A stretch of 64,000 bases of DNA from an uncultured Acidobacteriota bacterium (GTDB lineage Bacteria > Acidobacteriota > UBA6911). Both the position numbers and the translations under genes were made by a program. The stretch is taken from contig CAWJKZ010000010.1 in the NCBI GenBank assembly GCA_963843575.1, forward strand, positions 96,001-160,000. Direction: 5' to 3'. A model generated the notes under the pieces. It was not told the DNA's origin. It ran no database searches and saw only the letters and a list, made by a program, of their open reading frames with translations. Numbering within the stretch: position 1 is the first letter of the stretch; each line of letters starts with the position of its first letter. Shown one piece after another: positions 11,804 through 22,094 of this stretch.

Positions 11804-12349
11804 ATGCGGTGGAGATGGGGGTTGCTCCTGGGCACTGTGGCGCTGGCGTGCCTGTTCCTGGTGGCGTCGCAGGTGGTGGCGTTCCGGCATCGGGGCCTGC
11901 GGCCGGGAGAGATGCTTCCGAGCGCCACCCTGTGTGCGACATCCGGCGCGACGGTGAAAACAGAAAGCTGGCGCGGCAGCCCCACCCTGCTCGTGCTTTT
12001 CCGGCCGACGTGCCCGGCGTGCAGGGCTGAGATTGCCCTGCTGTCGGAGGTCGCACCCGAATTGGAGGGGCTGCGGATCGTGCTGCTGTCGGTCCAGTCC
12101 AGGGTGCAGGAAGACGACTTGCCGTTTCCCGTTTACACGGACCCTGACGGGAGCCTCCTGCGCAGGACGCGGAAGCTGCTGGTACCGGTGGTGTACGGCA
12201 TGGACCCCGAGGGGCGCGTCGTCTATGCCCGAGTGGGAAGCGGGAGCCGCGAGGAGGAACGGGCGATGCTTCGGCACCTGCTTTCCCGCCCTGGTTCATT
12301 GTTCAAAACCCTGCCGGAAGCGGGCGCCACGACGCGGCAGCCCGGGTAA
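11804..12349 (+). CDS. Membrane-anchored TlpA/AhpC-TSA-like thioredoxin-fold protein
   Basis: AGGAGGAG RBS, N-terminal TM, CPAC motif, FPVYTDPDG and DPEGRV. Confidence 0.75.
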   Translation: MRWRWGLLLGTVALACLFLVASQVVAFRHRGLRPGEMLPSATLCATSGATVKTESWRGSPTLLVLFRPTCPACRAEIALLSEVAPELEGLRIVLLSVQSRVQEDDLPFPVYTDPDGSLLRRTRKLLVPVVYGMDPEGRVVYARVGSGSREEERAMLRHLLSRPGSLFKTLPEAGATTRQPG

Positions 12350-12404
12350 CGCTTTTTTGTGCTAGAGTCTCCACGGATTCCAAATCCGAATGGAGTGGGT
12401 CTCG

Positions 12405-13427
12405 ATGACGCCTCGCGGCATTATCCCGCCGTACATCCTCCGTGCGATCGCCCAAAACGGAAGCTCGCGCCAGCAGGCGTGGGCCTGGTCCACCTTGACC
12501 GACACCGAGCAGTTCCGCGGACAGCGCAGGGTGCTCGCCCCGGTGTCCATCCTGGCGGTGCCCGGCACCGGGAAGAAGCGGCGCACCGTGTACGACGCCC
12601 GCCACAAGTACGAATTGCCCGGCCGGCTGGTACGCACCGAGGGAGAGTCGAAATCCAGGGATCCGGCGGTCAACGAAGCCTACGACGGGTGCGGAGCGAC
12701 CTACGATCTCCTCGCCCGCGTCTTCTCGCGCAACTCCCTCGACGACCGCGGGCTGCGGCTCGTCTCGTCCGTGCACTACGGCCACGCGTACGACAACGCC
12801 TTCTGGGACGGCCGCCAGATCGTTTTCGGGGACGGCGATGGGGAAGTGTTTGCCCGCTTCACCCGTGCCCTCGACGTGATCGGGCACGAACTGACTCACG
12901 GCATGGTCGAGTTCGTGGCCGGGCTGAAATACCAGGGACAACCCGGCGCCCTGAGCGAGTCGTTCGCCGATGTCTTCGGATCCCTCGTCAAGCAGTATAA
13001 GAAGAAGCAGTCGGCTGCCGAAGCTGACTGGCTCATCGGCGGGGACTTGTTCATGCCGGGCATAAACGGGAGGGGGATACGGTCGATGTCCGCGCCGGGG
13101 AGCGCCTACGACGATCCCCTGCTCGGGAGGGACCCTCAACCCGGGCACATGCGAGATTACATCCGCACCACCGACGACAACGGGGGTGTCCACCTGAACT
13201 CGGGTATCCCGAACCGGGCGTTCTACGGGGCGGCCGCACGGCTCGGCGGCTGCTCCTGGGAAAGGGCGGGCCGCGTCTGGTACACCACGCTCGTCAACCG
13301 GGTGAAACAGGGAACGACGTTCCGCGACGCCATGAACTTCACCGTGCAGACTGCAGGGGAACTGTACGGGACCGGGAGTGCCGAACACAAGGCTGTACGT
13401 GAGGCTTGGGCCGAAGTCGGGCTGTAG
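12405..13427 (+). CDS. M4-family protealysin-like metalloprotease
   Basis: Short propeptide IIPPYIL, NAFWDG, HELTH, ESFAD, DNGGVHLNSGIPN; no signal peptide. Confidence 0.92.
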   Translation: MTPRGIIPPYILRAIAQNGSSRQQAWAWSTLTDTEQFRGQRRVLAPVSILAVPGTGKKRRTVYDARHKYELPGRLVRTEGESKSRDPAVNEAYDGCGATYDLLARVFSRNSLDDRGLRLVSSVHYGHAYDNAFWDGRQIVFGDGDGEVFARFTRALDVIGHELTHGMVEFVAGLKYQGQPGALSESFADVFGSLVKQYKKKQSAAEADWLIGGDLFMPGINGRGIRSMSAPGSAYDDPLLGRDPQPGHMRDYIRTTDDNGGVHLNSGIPNRAFYGAAARLGGCSWERAGRVWYTTLVNRVKQGTTFRDAMNFTVQTAGELYGTGSAEHKAVREAWAEVGL

Positions 13428-13550
13428 CTGCCCAAGTGCCGGGCTGAGGAGGCTTTCCGACAGTCGACGGTTTCCGTAAAGACACGTGCGTCCGGGCTCC
13501 ACCCGGACTGGGGCCGCGTCGAGCCGACGCGGCCCACTTCGGCGCGAACA

Positions 13551-14546
13551 TCACACGGCGGGTGTGATGACGCGGCAGCCGATGGCCGCAAGCGATTCCG
13601 TGAGCCGGTCCAGCATGGCATGGTCTTCGTAGATGCCGAGGATCGATCCACCGGATCCGGCGTAGTGCGCGGAAGCCCCGGCAGCGCGCGCCCGCATCAC
13701 CATATCCACGTTGCGGGGATCCAGCTTGTAGATGGACGCGCGTGTGTCGAAGTTCTCGTCGATCAAGGCCCCCAGTCGCACGTGATCCCCGCGCAGGAGG
13801 CATTCCCGGCCTTCCAGGGCGAGATCCGCCACATGCTGCATCGCCTCGACCACCGCCTTCTCTCCCGACTCCCAGCGGGCCCGGATGTTGCTGTGGAATA
13901 TGCCGGAGATCTCGCTCAGGTCGGTCCGGTAGGCGACGTAGAGAGGCGGCAGAAGGGCAGGGTCGAGCGACTCGTAGCAGCCATGACCGTGCCGCTCCAT
14001 GAGCTCCCGGTTGAAATCCATGTAGGTGAGGCCGCCGTAGACCTGCGCCACCCGGTCCTGAAGACCGGCGGCGATGCCGATCTCCCGGGTTTCGACCGAG
14101 AGGATCAGGCCGGGGAGGATCGGCTTCGGAATGGAGACTTCGTAAAATAACATCAAGGCGCGAAAAACCGCCGTGATAATGGCGCTCGATCCCGCGAGGC
14201 CAACCTGGCGTGGGATGTCGGTCTCGTACCGGAGTGCGAAATTGCGGTCGTGGAGCTTGATGCCCTTTTCGGTGCAATAGTCGGCAAACCGCTTGATCGC
14301 GGCCTTGATCAGGCGGAGCCCCCCGTAATAGCCGTTCAGTTGCACATCCTGGACGAGTTCACCCAACCGGTCGAAGCAGCAGCGATCCTGCCGACTCAGG
14401 ATGATCTCCAGCTCGGGCCATTCATACAGCACGACCCGCGCGCTGAAGTTCTTCACGATGACGGAGATCGTCCGCCCGAAATACGCGTCCGACGGATTGC
14501 CCAGCATTCCGGCGCGGGCGTGCGCAACGGTTCGGATCACCCTCAT
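13551..14546 (-). CDS. GHMP-family sugar kinase, glucuronokinase-like
   Basis: [32 protein letters not shown] loop, [14 protein letters not shown] and GSGG. Confidence 0.85.
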
Positions 14547-15412
14547 TTCGGCACCTGGACAAGGGAGGCCAGCTTCGGGTACTCGGCCAGCGCGAACTCG
14601 ATGAACGCCTGAAAGTAGCTCTCGAAATTCCCGATGTCGTACCGGCGTTCACCCGCAGGCAAATGCATGCCGACGATCTTCTTCCCCTCCGCGAGCAGTA
14701 TCCGGATAGCATCGGTGAGCTGGATCTCGCCGTTTTTTCCCGGCGGCGTCTTCTCGAGCGCGGGGTAGACCTCGGGCGAGAAGACGTACCGGGAGGCGAT
14801 CGCCAGGTTGCTCGGGGCAGACTCGACCGAGGGCTTTTCGACGAGGTCGGTAATCAGGAAGGCTCCCCCCCCGAGGTCCGCACCCTCTTTGACCACCCCG
14901 TAGGAGGCGACAGACTCGCGCGCCACCTGTTCCACCGCGATCACACACCCGGCGCGCTCCGTCTCGAACACGTCCATCATGCAGCGCACCACGGTGGAGT
15001 TGCCGTGCAGGCCAATGATGCTGTCCCCGAGGGCGACGACGAAGGGTGCGTCCTGGGTGTAGTGCCGGGCGCACAGAATCGCATCCCCGAGACCCTTTTG
15101 CCGCCGCTGGCGGGTAAAAAAGAACTGCACGCGCATCCGCTCGTAGTCGAGTTCGGAGAGCAGATCCTCCTTCCCGGTCTCGCGCAGGTAGCGCATCAGC
15201 TCGTGGTCGAAGTCAAAGTGGTTTTCGATCGAACTCTTCCCTTTTCCGGTTATAAACAGGATCTGCTTCAGCCCGTTCGCCTCGAGTTCTTCGACCACGT
15301 ACTGGACGACGGGCTTCTTGGCGACGGGGAGCATCTCTTTGGGCTGCGACTTGGTGGCGGGGAGCAGTCTCGTCCCCAATCCGGCAACCGGCACGACAGC
15401 AATAGGTATCAT
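14543..15412 (-). CDS. UTP--sugar-1-phosphate uridylyltransferase (GalU-like)
   Basis: [40 protein letters not shown] and RYDIG; ATGA overlap with the kinase. Confidence 0.88.
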
Positions 15413-15475
15413 GCGGCCACTATTTATCACGGAAGCCCGGTCAAGAGAAGTTTGGTCTTCCAGCCCCGTACAGCG

Positions 15476-16246
15476 CTAGCGGCGCAGCCAGACCCGAACC
15501 CGGTAGTTCAACAGTCCGACGTACTCGTGCAGCGCGGCGTAGGTGTCTCTGGCTGCCGACTCGGACGGGAACAGGGCCAGCGGGCTGAGCGGAATGGGGG
15601 CGACGACGAAATCGCCGGGGGCGGCGACCGGCTCCGGGGCGATCGCGGAGAAGATGAACATGCTGCGCGGCATGTGCAGCGCGGAGGTGACCAGCAGGTA
15701 ACGACGCCATCCGCGGCCGCGCAGGATCACGCGGACCTGCTCCGCGCTCTCGAAGGTGTCGCGGGAACGGGGTTCAGGGACGATGTCGGCGGGTGGCACG
15801 CCCCAGCGCGCCAGGGTGTCGCAGGCCGCCTGGTTTTCTCCCTGCGCCGGGGTGAAGGGGTCGACGTGGCCGCCGGAGACGACGATCGGTTTGCGGACCT
15901 GCCGGTACAGGCGGAGCGCTTCGTCCAGGCGCCGGAACATCGAGACGTCTATTTGAGGCCGAGGGACCAGCCCTCCGGGCGGGGTCACACCGCCGGTTAG
16001 GACCACGATTGCGTCGTAGGAACCGACGGAGCGACAGTCGCGGACGGGCGGGTAACGAGATTCCAGGTAGTAACCGATGCCCCGGGCCGCGATGCCCGAG
16101 TGAAGGGCCGCGATGAACACGATCGAAAACAGCAGCAGAAGGCGCGCCCACGAGCGTCGCCAGAACACGAAAACGGCGCATAGCGCCAGCAGCCACAACC
16201 CGGGCGGGAGCAGCAGCAGCTTGAGAAACTGTTTCACGACGAGCAT
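15476..16246 (-). CDS. YdcF/ElyC/SanA-family (DUF218) membrane protein
   Basis: Two N-terminal TMs, DAIVVL, SGG, SRDTFE, LLVTSALHMPRS and LHEYVG. Confidence 0.85.
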   Translation of the reverse strand: MLVVKQFLKLLLLPPGLWLLALCAVFVFWRRSWARLLLLFSIVFIAALHSGIAARGIGYYLESRYPPVRDCRSVGSYDAIVVLTGGVTPPGGLVPRPQIDVSMFRRLDEALRLYRQVRKPIVVSGGHVDPFTPAQGENQAACDTLARWGVPPADIVPEPRSRDTFESAEQVRVILRGRGWRRYLLVTSALHMPRSMFIFSAIAPEPVAAPGDFVVAPIPLSPLALFPSESAARDTYAALHEYVGLLNYRVRVWLRR

Positions 16247-16568
16247 TGCGGCACCAGCCTCCCGCGGTCCGGAGTTTGTGCCGGCATTATCCACCGCGGA
16301 ACCGCGGGACGCAACCGACGGCCGGTTCGACCTGAACCTGTGGGTCGGGCGCGCCAGGGGGGGACAGGCAAAAATGAATGGCCCGCTCCCCGCCGCCATC
16401 TGTGGAGCTCTTTGAGGCCTCGACGTGAATTCCATGCCCGAACTCTTGGGCTCCAAGGCCTGGCGCCGAGGCAGGGGGCGTTCCTGCCGCAGGTTTACCG
16501 GGAAAGAGGCGTCACACTTCAGAGCGATTTTGTTAATTTCCCGGCCCCGGAAGTCCGATCAGACACAC

Positions 16569-18024: not shown

Positions 18025-18708
18025 CTAGAGGTCCACGGGGCCCTGGCGTCCCAGCGAGGCGCGCTGGCGCAGGCGCTCCATCTTCCGGAGCCGCCGCAGC
18101 TCGCGGCGCTCCTCAATGCGCTGCCGGCGGCGCTCCAGGATCTTGAGGCGCCGGTACTCCCGGTGTTTGATGCTGTTGTCGAGTCTCGACCAGAACTCGC
18201 GGAAGTATTGAACCATCGAAAGCAGGGCAAAAAACACCACCGCCCAGAGTAAGGCGTTGGCGGTCTGCAGTACCCAGCCCCCTCGCACGCGGCCGAGTAT
18301 GAGGCCGACGACCGCCGCCACCTGGGCGACCATCTTCCCCTTGCCCAGGCGGGACGCGTCGATCGTGAAGCCCTCGTGCGCCGCAATGCTGCGCAGCCCG
18401 CTGACGGCAAACTCCCGACCGATGATGATCACGACCATCCAGGCCGGGGCGATGCCCAGCTGAACGAGGGAGACGAGGGCCGAACAGATCAGCAGTTTGT
18501 CCGCGATCGGGTCGAGCAGCCGCCCTAGCGTCGTCACCTGCTTGCGTTTGCGGGCAAAGTAGCCGTCCAGCAGATCAGTGAGGGCGGCAGAAAGAAAAAG
18601 GCCGGACCCCCAGAACTCCCAATGCGCAATCTGCTTCGTGAGCAGCACGACAACCACGAAGGGGACCAGAAAGATCCGGGCCAATGTCAGTGCGTTGGGG
18701 AGATTCAT
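18025..18708 (-). CDS. pgsA: CDP-diacylglycerol--glycerol-3-phosphate 3-phosphatidyltransferase
   Basis: MNLPNALT start; CDP-alcohol motif DLLDGYFAR...GRLLDPIADK. Confidence 0.9.
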   Translation of the reverse strand: MNLPNALTLARIFLVPFVVVVLLTKQIAHWEFWGSGLFLSAALTDLLDGYFARKRKQVTTLGRLLDPIADKLLICSALVSLVQLGIAPAWMVVIIIGREFAVSGLRSIAAHEGFTIDASRLGKGKMVAQVAAVVGLILGRVRGGWVLQTANALLWAVVFFALLSMVQYFREFWSRLDNSIKHREYRRLKILERRRQRIEERRELRRLRKMERLRQRASLGRQGPVDL

Positions 18709-21053: not shown

Positions 21054-22094
21054 GTGATTAAGGCACTCATACTTGCCGGCGGCAAAGGCGCGCGCCTTCG
21101 CCCGCTCGCGTTGCACACGCCCAAACCTATCGTGCCCCTGGCCAACATACCTTTTCTGTTTTTTCAGATCGACCACATCAAACAGGCCCGGATCACGGAA
21201 ATAATCCTGAGCCTCTCGTACCAGCCGCGCAAGATCACCGACATCTTCGGTGACGGCATGAAGTACGGGGTCACGATGCGTTACACCCACGAGGACTTGC
21301 CGCGGGGAACGGCGGGGGCGTTCAAGGCCGCCGAGAATCTCATCGACGATACGACGGTCGTCCTGAACGGCGACGTCCTGACCGACACCGACCTGCTCGG
21401 CGTAATCCGGTACCACAAGGAAAAACAGGCCGAAGCCACCATCGTGATGGCCCGTGTCATGAATCCCGCCGGTTACGGGCTGGTGGAAACCGACGTGGAA
21501 GGCCGGGTGGTCAGGTTCACGGAAAAACCCGCGGAGGATGAAGTCACGGGTGACACCATCAACGCCGGGATCTACATCCTCGAGCCCTCGGTGCTGCAGC
21601 GCATCTCCGTGGAAGGACCGCAGAGCTTCGAACGCGAGGTGTTCCCGGGCATGCTGCAAGATGGGGCGCGATTCTATGCCTATCTCACGCGGGGCTACTG
21701 GCAGGACATCGGGAGCCCGCAGAAATACCTCGAGGCTCACTACGGCATCATCTCCGGCCGCATGAAGCTCCCGGGGTACCCGTTGAAAGCCTGCCCTCCG
21801 AATGATTGGGACAAGCGCAACGTCAAGATCGACTCGTACTCGATCCTCGACGGCGGGTGCGTGATCAAACCGGGGGTGGCCATCGAGAATTCGGTCCTCG
21901 GCGAGGACTGCCGGGTCGAGGAGGGCACCCTGATCAAGGACTCGGTCATCTGGAGCGGCACCCGCATCCGGGCCACCGCGCGAATCGAGCGCGCCATCAT
22001 CGGAAGGCAGTGCCACATCGGCGAAGGTGTGCGGCTGCGTCCGGGGACCGTGCTCGGCGACAAGACAATCGTGACCGACTACAGCGTGCTTTAG
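21054..22094 (+). CDS. NDP-sugar synthase (mannose-1-phosphate guanylyltransferase-like) with left-handed beta-helix tail
   Basis: ILAGGKGARLRP, PKP, GTAGA, NGDV, EKP, INAGIY, W.DIG and hexapeptide repeats. Confidence 0.88.
   Translation: MIKALILAGGKGARLRPLALHTPKPIVPLANIPFLFFQIDHIKQARITEIILSLSYQPRKITDIFGDGMKYGVTMRYTHEDLPRGTAGAFKAAENLIDDTTVVLNGDVLTDTDLLGVIRYHKEKQAEATIVMARVMNPAGYGLVETDVEGRVVRFTEKPAEDEVTGDTINAGIYILEPSVLQRISVEGPQSFEREVFPGMLQDGARFYAYLTRGYWQDIGSPQKYLEAHYGIISGRMKLPGYPLKACPPNDWDKRNVKIDSYSILDGGCVIKPGVAIENSVLGEDCRVEEGTLIKDSVIWSGTRIRATARIERAIIGRQCHIGEGVRLRPGTVLGDKTIVTDYSVL

Follow-up and report, generated by a model that had tools for sequence, protein, structure and literature searches.

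UDP-glucuronate (UDP-GlcA) is the donor for capsules, exopolysaccharides and cell-envelope glycans that contain uronic acids, and is also the precursor of UDP-xylose and related sugars. According to the textbook view, bacteria synthesize this nucleotide sugar only through the oxidation of UDP-glucose by UDP-glucose 6-dehydrogenase (Ugd). In plants, UDP-GlcA is made via glucuronic acid 1-phosphate (GlcA-1-P) and a UDP-sugar pyrophosphorylase (USP), which we take to be a member of the Pfam family UDPGP (PF01704), and the free glucuronic acid (GlcA) entering this route is supplied by MIOX. Can bacteria, too, convert free GlcA directly into UDP-GlcA? The question is raised by two overlapping genes at positions 13,551 to 15,412 of a 64,000-nucleotide stretch of DNA (hereafter the window; positions 96,001 to 160,000 of contig CAWJKZ010000010.1, assembly GCA_963843575.1) from an uncultured Acidobacteriota bacterium of the lineage UBA6911, which encode a GHMP kinase, P0001, and a GalU-family nucleotidyltransferase, P0002. 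We propose that the two proteins form a self-contained module activating free D-glucuronic acid. In the first step, the kinase would use ATP to phosphorylate the anomeric hydroxyl group of GlcA, giving GlcA-1-P (EC 2.7.1.43), as its orthology with characterized enzymes suggests. In the second step, the GalU-family enzyme would move UMP from UTP onto GlcA-1-P, giving UDP-GlcA and pyrophosphate (EC 2.7.7.44), as suggested by the gene linkage, the chemistry of the family and an altered sugar pocket. The probability of the full route, from GlcA via GlcA-1-P to UDP-GlcA by this pair, is put at about 0.6. The new element is the conserved, sometimes fused, pairing of the kinase with a distinct clade of GalU proteins which have lost a sugar-contacting aspartate.

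Both genes lie on the minus strand, head to tail, with the GalU-like gene first and the kinase gene second. The kinase gene (13551..14546) starts with ATG and encodes a GHMP kinase of the glucuronokinase family with 331 residues, as judged from the open reading frame (ORF) list, its translation, Pfam, alignment and a tree. The gene for P0002 (14543..15412 or 14543..15430), recognized from the ORF list, Pfam and TIGR01099, encodes a paralog of the GalU-family sugar-1-phosphate uridylyltransferases and has two start candidates, either of which is possible: a GTG at 15430 (295 residues), and an ATG at 15412 (289 residues) which lies in frame six codons inside the GTG-started ORF. The junction DNA, read directly, is ...CCGAAATGAGGG..., where the kinase ATG (14546-14544) and the TGA ending the upstream gene (14545-14543) form an ATGA stop/start overlap of four bases (14543..14546). 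With the transferase gene placed first, this overlap suggests coupled translation, and an identical −4 overlap was seen again in related loci. A four-base overlap alone is ordinary operon architecture; it is the conservation of the pairing across phyla, described below, that exceeds what is expected by chance.

On its sequence, P0001 is a new bacterial member of the known glucuronokinase family, and GlcA is its predicted substrate by orthology. It matches the Pfam families GHMP_kinases_N (PF00288, 42.7 bits) and GHMP_kinases_C (PF08544, 21.3 bits) above their cut-offs, while no NCBIfam model comes near its own cut-off, HddA being the best with 46 bits (cut-off 600) and GalK reaching 22 bits (cut-off 443). 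The kinase domain of the glucuronokinase with putative uridyl pyrophosphorylase (GKUP) of the zebrafish, Danio rerio (NP_001107088.2), is 44% identical to P0001 over 330 residues (BLASTP, E 4e-92), and a peptide of the Lilium glucuronokinase printed in the available text of PMC2823444 agrees with residues 12-25 of P0001 at 11 of 14 positions. In a large protein collection, homologues of similar length are bacterial and 63-90% identical. Among the matches listed, 41 carry names, of which 34 read 'glucuronokinase' and one is a generic kinase name (all from the Joint Genome Institute, JGI), and the remaining six are the NCBI names 'GHMP kinase' or 'mevalonate kinase family protein'. There are also 449 longer proteins that match P0001 at E 1e-5 or better; most of those listed come from eukaryotes, combine PF00483 with PF00288 in a fusion and bear the name 'glucuronokinase with putative uridyl pyrophosphorylase', and one of their clusters includes the D. 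rerio entries NP_001107088.2 and XP_005157584.1, accessions which are cited (NP_001107088 as version.1) in the available text of the paper characterizing the zebrafish enzyme (PMC3938481). In a Protein Atlas search, the clusters closest to P0001 were GHMP kinases with a loose name or none, and a search of the PDB with P0001 returned no glucuronokinase structure, the best match being the HddA-like kinase 3k85 (E 1e-12).

A quick maximum-likelihood tree of 44 sequences, drawn without plant representatives, comprised P0001, 22 bacterial kinases, 10 eukaryotic kinase domains, five fusions or long forms and, from the source genome, six further GHMP kinases. A branch of length 2.56 (SH-like approximate likelihood ratio test, SH-aLRT, 86) divides all 38 glucuronokinase-like sequences, including that of D. 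rerio, from the source genome's IspE, ThrB, GalK, GalK-like protein, 762-residue GHMP protein and Fkp. The eukaryotic sequences form a single group, and the root is unsure because the outgroup branches are very long. Across the same 38 bacterial and eukaryotic family members, 53 positions are invariant or nearly so. The GHMP fold, the full-length homology to a characterized enzyme and the grouping in the tree thus place P0001 with the glucuronokinases (EC 2.7.1.43, KEGG K16190). An earlier reading of this DNA, made from the letters alone (the sequence-only reading), had noted the ATGA overlap, borne out by the ORF list and the junction DNA, and had listed kinase motifs, LLPPL among them, every one of which is present in the translation of P0001. 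Its view that the kinase fits glucuronokinase better than GalK or HddA agrees with the D. rerio identity, the low HddA and GalK scores and the tree. It had further called the enzyme a plant-type glucuronokinase; the family assignment stands, and the restriction to plants does not, since members occur in animals, protists and plants as well as in at least 594 bacterial species. A side observation concerns long forms of the same kinase family, namely P0122 (590 residues), L151:2838-4532, L153:3001-4719 and L152:2984-4300, in which roughly 120-300 N-terminal residues have no Pfam match and resemble neither P0002 nor the N-terminal domain of the zebrafish protein. For the three long forms of genomes G032, G124 and G085, the identity to P0001 is only 38-41% (BLASTP), and these genomes lack a P0002-type GalU.

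The closest characterized counterparts of the proposed module are eukaryotic. In zebrafish GKUP (NP_001107088; PMC3938481) and its animal and protist relatives, the kinase domain is homologous to P0001 over its full length, the nucleotidyltransferase is likewise encoded immediately before the kinase, and the chemistry proposed, GlcA to GlcA-1-P to UDP-GlcA, is identical; the zebrafish enzyme is reported in the available text of that paper to be specific for GlcA. The source genome differs in having two separate overlapping genes instead of one polypeptide, and in using a transferase of the GalU family. Bacterial fusions that arose independently also carry a GalU-type domain and not a zebrafish-type N-terminal domain, and a search of the fetched bacterial loci with the N-terminal domain of D. 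rerio GKUP gave no matches. As far as the text available of PMC3938481 goes, bacteria are said to encode only a pyrophosphorylase related to the zebrafish N-terminal domain; homologues of glucuronokinase in 'a few bacteria' had been mentioned in the Arabidopsis paper of 2009/2010, in the portion of PMC2823444 at hand. The Arabidopsis and Lilium glucuronokinases (GlcAK, EC 2.7.1.43; same portion of PMC2823444) with USP represent the same kinase family and the same two-step salvage logic. Salvage or activation of a sugar by a GHMP anomeric kinase together with a nucleotidyltransferase is also known from Fkp (L-fucokinase/fucose-1-phosphate guanylyltransferase) and from HddA/HddC, and HddA-like kinases provide the closest solved structures to P0001. 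These systems differ in that the nucleotide is GTP and the sugars are others, and their similarity to P0001 is remote.

P0002 belongs to the GalU family, and it is a paralog of the housekeeping enzyme in its own genome. It matches the Pfam family NTP_transferase (PF00483) with 98.6 bits, has no PF01704 match, and aligns with Bacillus subtilis YngB (7o2n) at E 1.6e-62. Thus, it shares fold and family with the bacterial GalU proteins (TIGR01099; YngB 7o2n, Helicobacter pylori 3juk, and those of Pseudomonas aeruginosa and Klebsiella pneumoniae) and keeps their ligands. Unlike them, it scores 293.6 bits on TIGR01099, below the equivalog cut-off of 326.8, lies in a separate clade, has Ser in place of Asp in the sugar pocket and shows private changes; in a sample of 201 Acidobacteriota genomes, its type occurs only in genomes that also carry the kinase. 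Elsewhere in the source genome, another GalU (C13:685312-686106) passes the cut-off with 380.4 bits and is 46% identical to P0002, which is why P0002 is regarded as the paralog. In a quick tree of 100 GalU-family sequences, all 36 P0002-type proteins, all 34 proteins linked downstream of a kinase and the two domains of bacterial fusions form one group (SH-aLRT 98), which also takes in one unlinked GalU from a kinase-positive genome. This kinase-associated group is separate from 25 GalU proteins without a kinase link, consisting of the housekeeping copy, three from other carriers, 20 from kinase-negative genomes of the phylum and that of G210, a genome with only a distant kinase homologue; nearly all of this contrast set belongs to a single phylum, and this restricts the conclusions that can be drawn from the split. 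The private changes of the P0002 type are A15V, F22L, I42V, A49L, G261E and K269F, as well as small insertions.

The pairing is widespread. A scan of one genome per species gave at least 599 pattern matches, at least 594 of them encoding a relative of the kinase, and the carriers span Acidobacteriota, Planctomycetota, Verrucomicrobiota, Bacteroidota (Cytophagales), Hydrogenedentota, Sumerlaeota, Kiritimatiellota, Lentisphaerota and others. Among the best 80 of these bacterial kinase loci, to which all synteny counts refer, 55 have a GalU homologue adjoining the kinase gene in the same orientation, upstream in 27 (57-93% identity to P0002) and downstream in 28 (39-47% identity). The two functions are also found in single proteins: P0124, a metagenomic fusion of 626 residues, is 40% identical to P0002 in its N-terminal half and 48% identical to P0001 in its C-terminal half, and in genome G189, GalU-type and kinase domains are fused in one 637-residue frame. 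Co-occurrence was tallied in three samples, and these tallies are descriptive and not statistical tests, as related genomes are not independent. In the Acidobacteriota sample, nine genomes have the kinase (at least 60% identity) and nine have a P0002-type GalU (at least 62%); they are the same genomes, and the two genes are always adjacent. A GalU match occurs in 138 other genomes of this sample, always at 50% identity to P0002 or less, and four more genomes have distant kinase homologues (37-42% identity) and no P0002-type GalU; the unpublished genomes G079, G182 and G054 were counted only as kinase-negative with an ordinary GalU. In the Cytophagales sample (81 genomes), the kinase and a TIGR01099 GalU occur in the same seven genomes, adjacent in six, and in the Verrucomicrobiota sample (101 genomes), kinase and GalU occur in the same 23 genomes, adjacent in 18. 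The other 74 and 78 genomes, respectively, have neither, a GalU-family gene having been searched for at E 1e-60. On this evidence, the kinase and the GalU-clade gene are very probably functionally coupled.

P0002 was aligned to YngB, with residue roles taken from the available text of PMC7961091. Residues A16, G17, K31, E32, Q108, G113, D136, G178, E198 and K199 of P0002, which are invariant in 31 P0002-type sequences, correspond to Ala13, Gly14, Lys28, Glu29, Gln105, Gly110, Asp133, Gly172, Glu191 and Lys192 of YngB, so that the uridine, Mg2+ and phosphate ligands are all kept. Asp134 of YngB and Asp131 of the P. aeruginosa enzyme (PaUGP) are described as touching the glucose moiety (PMC7961091, PMC11796359, both in part), and at the aligned position P0002 has Ser137. 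All 36 P0002-type proteins have Ser here; the 28 GalU proteins linked downstream of the kinase have Thr (26), Ala (1) or Cys (1), six further Cytophagales copies all have Thr, and both bacterial fusions have Cys. Among 26 unlinked GalU proteins, 23 have Asp and one each has Glu, Val and Thr, the sole Thr belonging to a kinase-positive genome. In PaUGP, Asp131 helps to coordinate glucose, and the D131A variant is nearly inactive, according to the available text of PMC11796359. The removal of an acidic side chain suggests a pocket of the kind expected to accept a C6 carboxylate. In addition, ordinary UDP-glucose pyrophosphorylases (UGPases) are reported, in the text available of PMC12203929, to show less than 10% activity with GlcA-1-P, which makes a specialized enzyme plausible. 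Thus, co-occurrence, synteny, fusions and the loss of Asp together point to a P0002 that may have shifted toward a uronic acid 1-phosphate.

Several observations weigh against the proposed route, in addition to the non-independence of related genomes mentioned above. P0002 is unrelated to the N-terminal pyrophosphorylase domain of zebrafish GKUP beyond the N-terminal G-rich loop, to which the BLASTP match is confined (E 0.06), the pyrophosphorylase activity of that domain was not demonstrated in vitro according to the available text of PMC3938481, and plant USP is both unlinked to the kinase and unrelated to P0002. The loss of Asp is suggestive and not diagnostic, because the K. pneumoniae UGPase has Val138 at this site and tolerates changes there, the V138A and V138D variants keeping 61-67% activity (PMC11796359, same available text). 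The pairing is also incomplete, since 25 of the 80 kinase loci have unrelated neighbors and no adjacent GalU, some of them being cut by contig ends; when 10 genomes with such partnerless kinases were searched, four had a clade member elsewhere, four had only a distant homologue (141-171 bits) and two had none. Neither a transporter nor a glucuronidase is a conserved neighbor of the pair, and ORF clustering of the 80 loci found no other family in more than eight of them. As for a source of GlcA, neither GH67 and GH115 nor MIOX was found in the source genome, which is 88% complete, and for MIOX the control genomes gave no matches either. Finally, a literature search, part of which was loosely targeted, found no assayed bacterial member of either family.

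The alternative which survives best, and which we still consider doubtful, leaves the kinase as it is and changes the partner: the linked GalU would be a broad UDP-sugar pyrophosphorylase, similar in function to USP, making both UDP-glucose and UDP-GlcA, and would be dedicated to GlcA-1-P only where a housekeeping GalU is kept. In eight of the nine kinase-positive Acidobacteriota genomes, the P0002-type protein is the sole GalU match (E 1e-40), so that it may also, or mainly, make UDP-glucose there, and every GalU match in the Cytophagales and Verrucomicrobiota samples is the kinase-associated one. Furthermore, the catalytic and uridine-binding residues are all canonical, and true UGPases can do without an acidic residue at the site of the Asp, as the available account of the K. 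pneumoniae enzyme indicates. The same samples, however, also speak against this alternative, because the large majority of their genomes (74 of 81 and 78 of 101) lack any GalU-family gene; UDP-glucose must come from another enzyme there, and GalU is not needed for it. In addition, a separate GalU scoring above the cut-off is retained in the source genome and in at least three more.

It is unlikely, in our estimation, that the same architecture of anomeric kinase and UDP-sugar pyrophosphorylase serves another sugar, such as galacturonic acid, glucose, galactose or a pentose, the bacterial kinases having diverged in specificity. GHMP sugar kinases switch substrate readily, and the identity to the characterized enzyme is just 44%. 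Many downstream-linked partners score above the curated GalU cut-off, which stands for glucose 1-phosphate (13 of 15 linked proteins, seven of seven in Cytophagales and 14 of 23 in Verrucomicrobiota), a fact that also counts against a GlcA-1-P specialization of these partners, some of which may make UDP-glucose as well or be broad UDP-sugar pyrophosphorylases; the linked enzyme is the sole GalU homologue in most carriers, and GlcA-releasing enzymes were not seen near the pair. On the other side stand the 53 near-invariant positions shared by 38 bacterial and eukaryotic members, which include all the motifs of the sequence-only reading, and the internal branches between eukaryotic and bacterial kinases, which are short compared with those to any other GHMP family. 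Moreover, the Arabidopsis and zebrafish enzymes are reported to be strictly GlcA-specific (PMC2823444, PMC3938481, in their available text), a separate GalK and an Fkp-like fucokinase are already encoded in the source genome, and the loss of an acidic pocket residue suits an acidic substrate. That the adjacency is functionally meaningless, a duplicated housekeeping galU having come to lie beside an unrelated GHMP kinase by chance, is very improbable: four-base overlaps are indeed common between unrelated neighbors and the flanking genes on both sides vary between loci, but the two genes are adjacent, in either order, in 55 of 80 loci from many phyla, they are fused in P0124 and G189, and the carrier genome sets are identical in three samples, a co-occurrence which already contradicts it.

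With GlcA salvage by the pair as the preferred reading, the remaining gene content of the source genome (27 contigs) indicates the place it might take in metabolism. The sequence-only reading had pointed to a second, housekeeping galU and to ugd as genes worth looking for; both were found, the former being the 380.4-bit GalU described above and the latter a TuaD-like Ugd with 517 bits. The presence of this Ugd means that the pair fits salvage rather than a sole route to UDP-GlcA. Uronate isomerase UxaC (652 bits) is present as well. In this organism, the pair would therefore form a salvage branch beside the de novo Ugd route and the housekeeping GalU, and would compete with UxaC-dependent catabolism for GlcA. 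PF01704, the family to which we assign plant USP, has no match in the source genome, nor in the control genomes. The two-step route from GlcA to UDP-GlcA, as the sequence-only reading had proposed it, is well supported by comparative genomics in terms of orthology, synteny, fusions and co-occurrence, with both substrates predicted. Apart from the pair, the source genome encodes GalK, an Fkp-like bifunctional fucokinase/fucose-1-phosphate guanylyltransferase (G000:C13:162200-165406, L019; 452 bits, cut-off 721) and, just past the end of the window, a 762-residue protein that has a GHMP domain but fits no curated family (G000:C10:160130-163333, L017). Counting these three, the source organism holds several anomeric-kinase salvage routes.

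A more far-reaching reading is offered tentatively, and we hold it to be rather less probable than not: the clade now named galU would consist of dedicated UDP-GlcA pyrophosphorylases which, together with glucuronokinase, make up a mobile two-gene, sometimes fused, Ugd-independent route to UDP-GlcA in Acidobacteriota, Planctomycetota, Verrucomicrobiota, Cytophagales and allied phyla. Of the 23 kinase-positive genomes in the Verrucomicrobiota sample, two gave a match for a TuaD-type Ugd, versus 19 of the 78 kinase-negative ones, with a query that misses other Ugd subtypes, and the pair could be the only UDP-GlcA route in many carriers. The bacterial module could also be the prokaryotic source of eukaryotic glucuronokinase. 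If the proposed route is true, polysaccharide-degrading bacteria of soil and water could recycle scavenged GlcA straight into their own glycans, and many genes now called 'galU' or 'GHMP kinase', found across at least 594 species, would have their annotation corrected. It would also provide a bacterial UDP-GlcA pyrophosphorylase, the activity that escaped demonstration in the zebrafish fusion enzyme, as well as compact bacterial enzymes for the one-pot synthesis of UDP-GlcA. The change of Asp to Ser or Thr offers a simple specificity hypothesis that is open to testing.

The surroundings of the pair in the window define its limits. A minus-strand ORF at 12303-13502 (399 residues) was considered as a third gene of the operon and rejected, as it has no family match and the composition of a wrong frame. 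It overlaps a convergent gene at 12390-13427 on the plus strand for a thermolysin-family M4 peptidase with a protealysin propeptide (PF02868, 185.7 bits; PF01447, 98 bits; PF16485, 29.5 bits). The ORF is thus a shadow frame over the peptidase gene, and the transcription unit ends with the kinase. Upstream, a same-strand gene for a DUF218/ElyC-like membrane protein (15476-16456) was also set aside as a member of the module, because tblastn gave only one weak partial match to it in the 80 loci. No tRNA or tmRNA gene, and no Rfam family at gathering score, was found in the whole window, and a search of sequencing runs with a stretch of the window listed no RNA run, the DNA runs covering only small shares of that stretch.

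Some minor observations were made at loci other than that of the source genome. A gene for a nucleotide-sugar epimerase/dehydratase of the short-chain dehydrogenase/reductase (SDR) family directly follows the kinase-GalU pair in five loci (L023:7134-8162, L069:7890-8843, L080:7890-8843, L098:7890-8852 and L077:7901-8956). No curated model assigns a specificity to these proteins, the L023 copy having partial similarity to UDP-xylose synthase and ArnA-type models, and the enzyme may act on the UDP-GlcA that the pair would produce. A distant GalU homologue of about 146 bits was seen in Spirosoma. The records of L030 and L033 are labeled Heliomicrobium (Bacillota), yet their kinase and GalU nest tightly among those of Blastocatellia (Acidobacteriota), and the bins may be mislabeled. 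Within the window, at some distance from the pair, a CDP-alcohol phosphatidyltransferase gene (18025-18708, minus strand; 143.7 bits) is separated by about 2.3 kb from a nucleotidyltransferase gene whose product has a C-terminal left-handed beta-helix domain (21054-22094, plus strand; 178.8 bits), with genes for a universal stress protein and an M50/CBS protease between them; the phosphatidyltransferase and the beta-helix nucleotidyltransferase might together activate an alcohol or a sugar.

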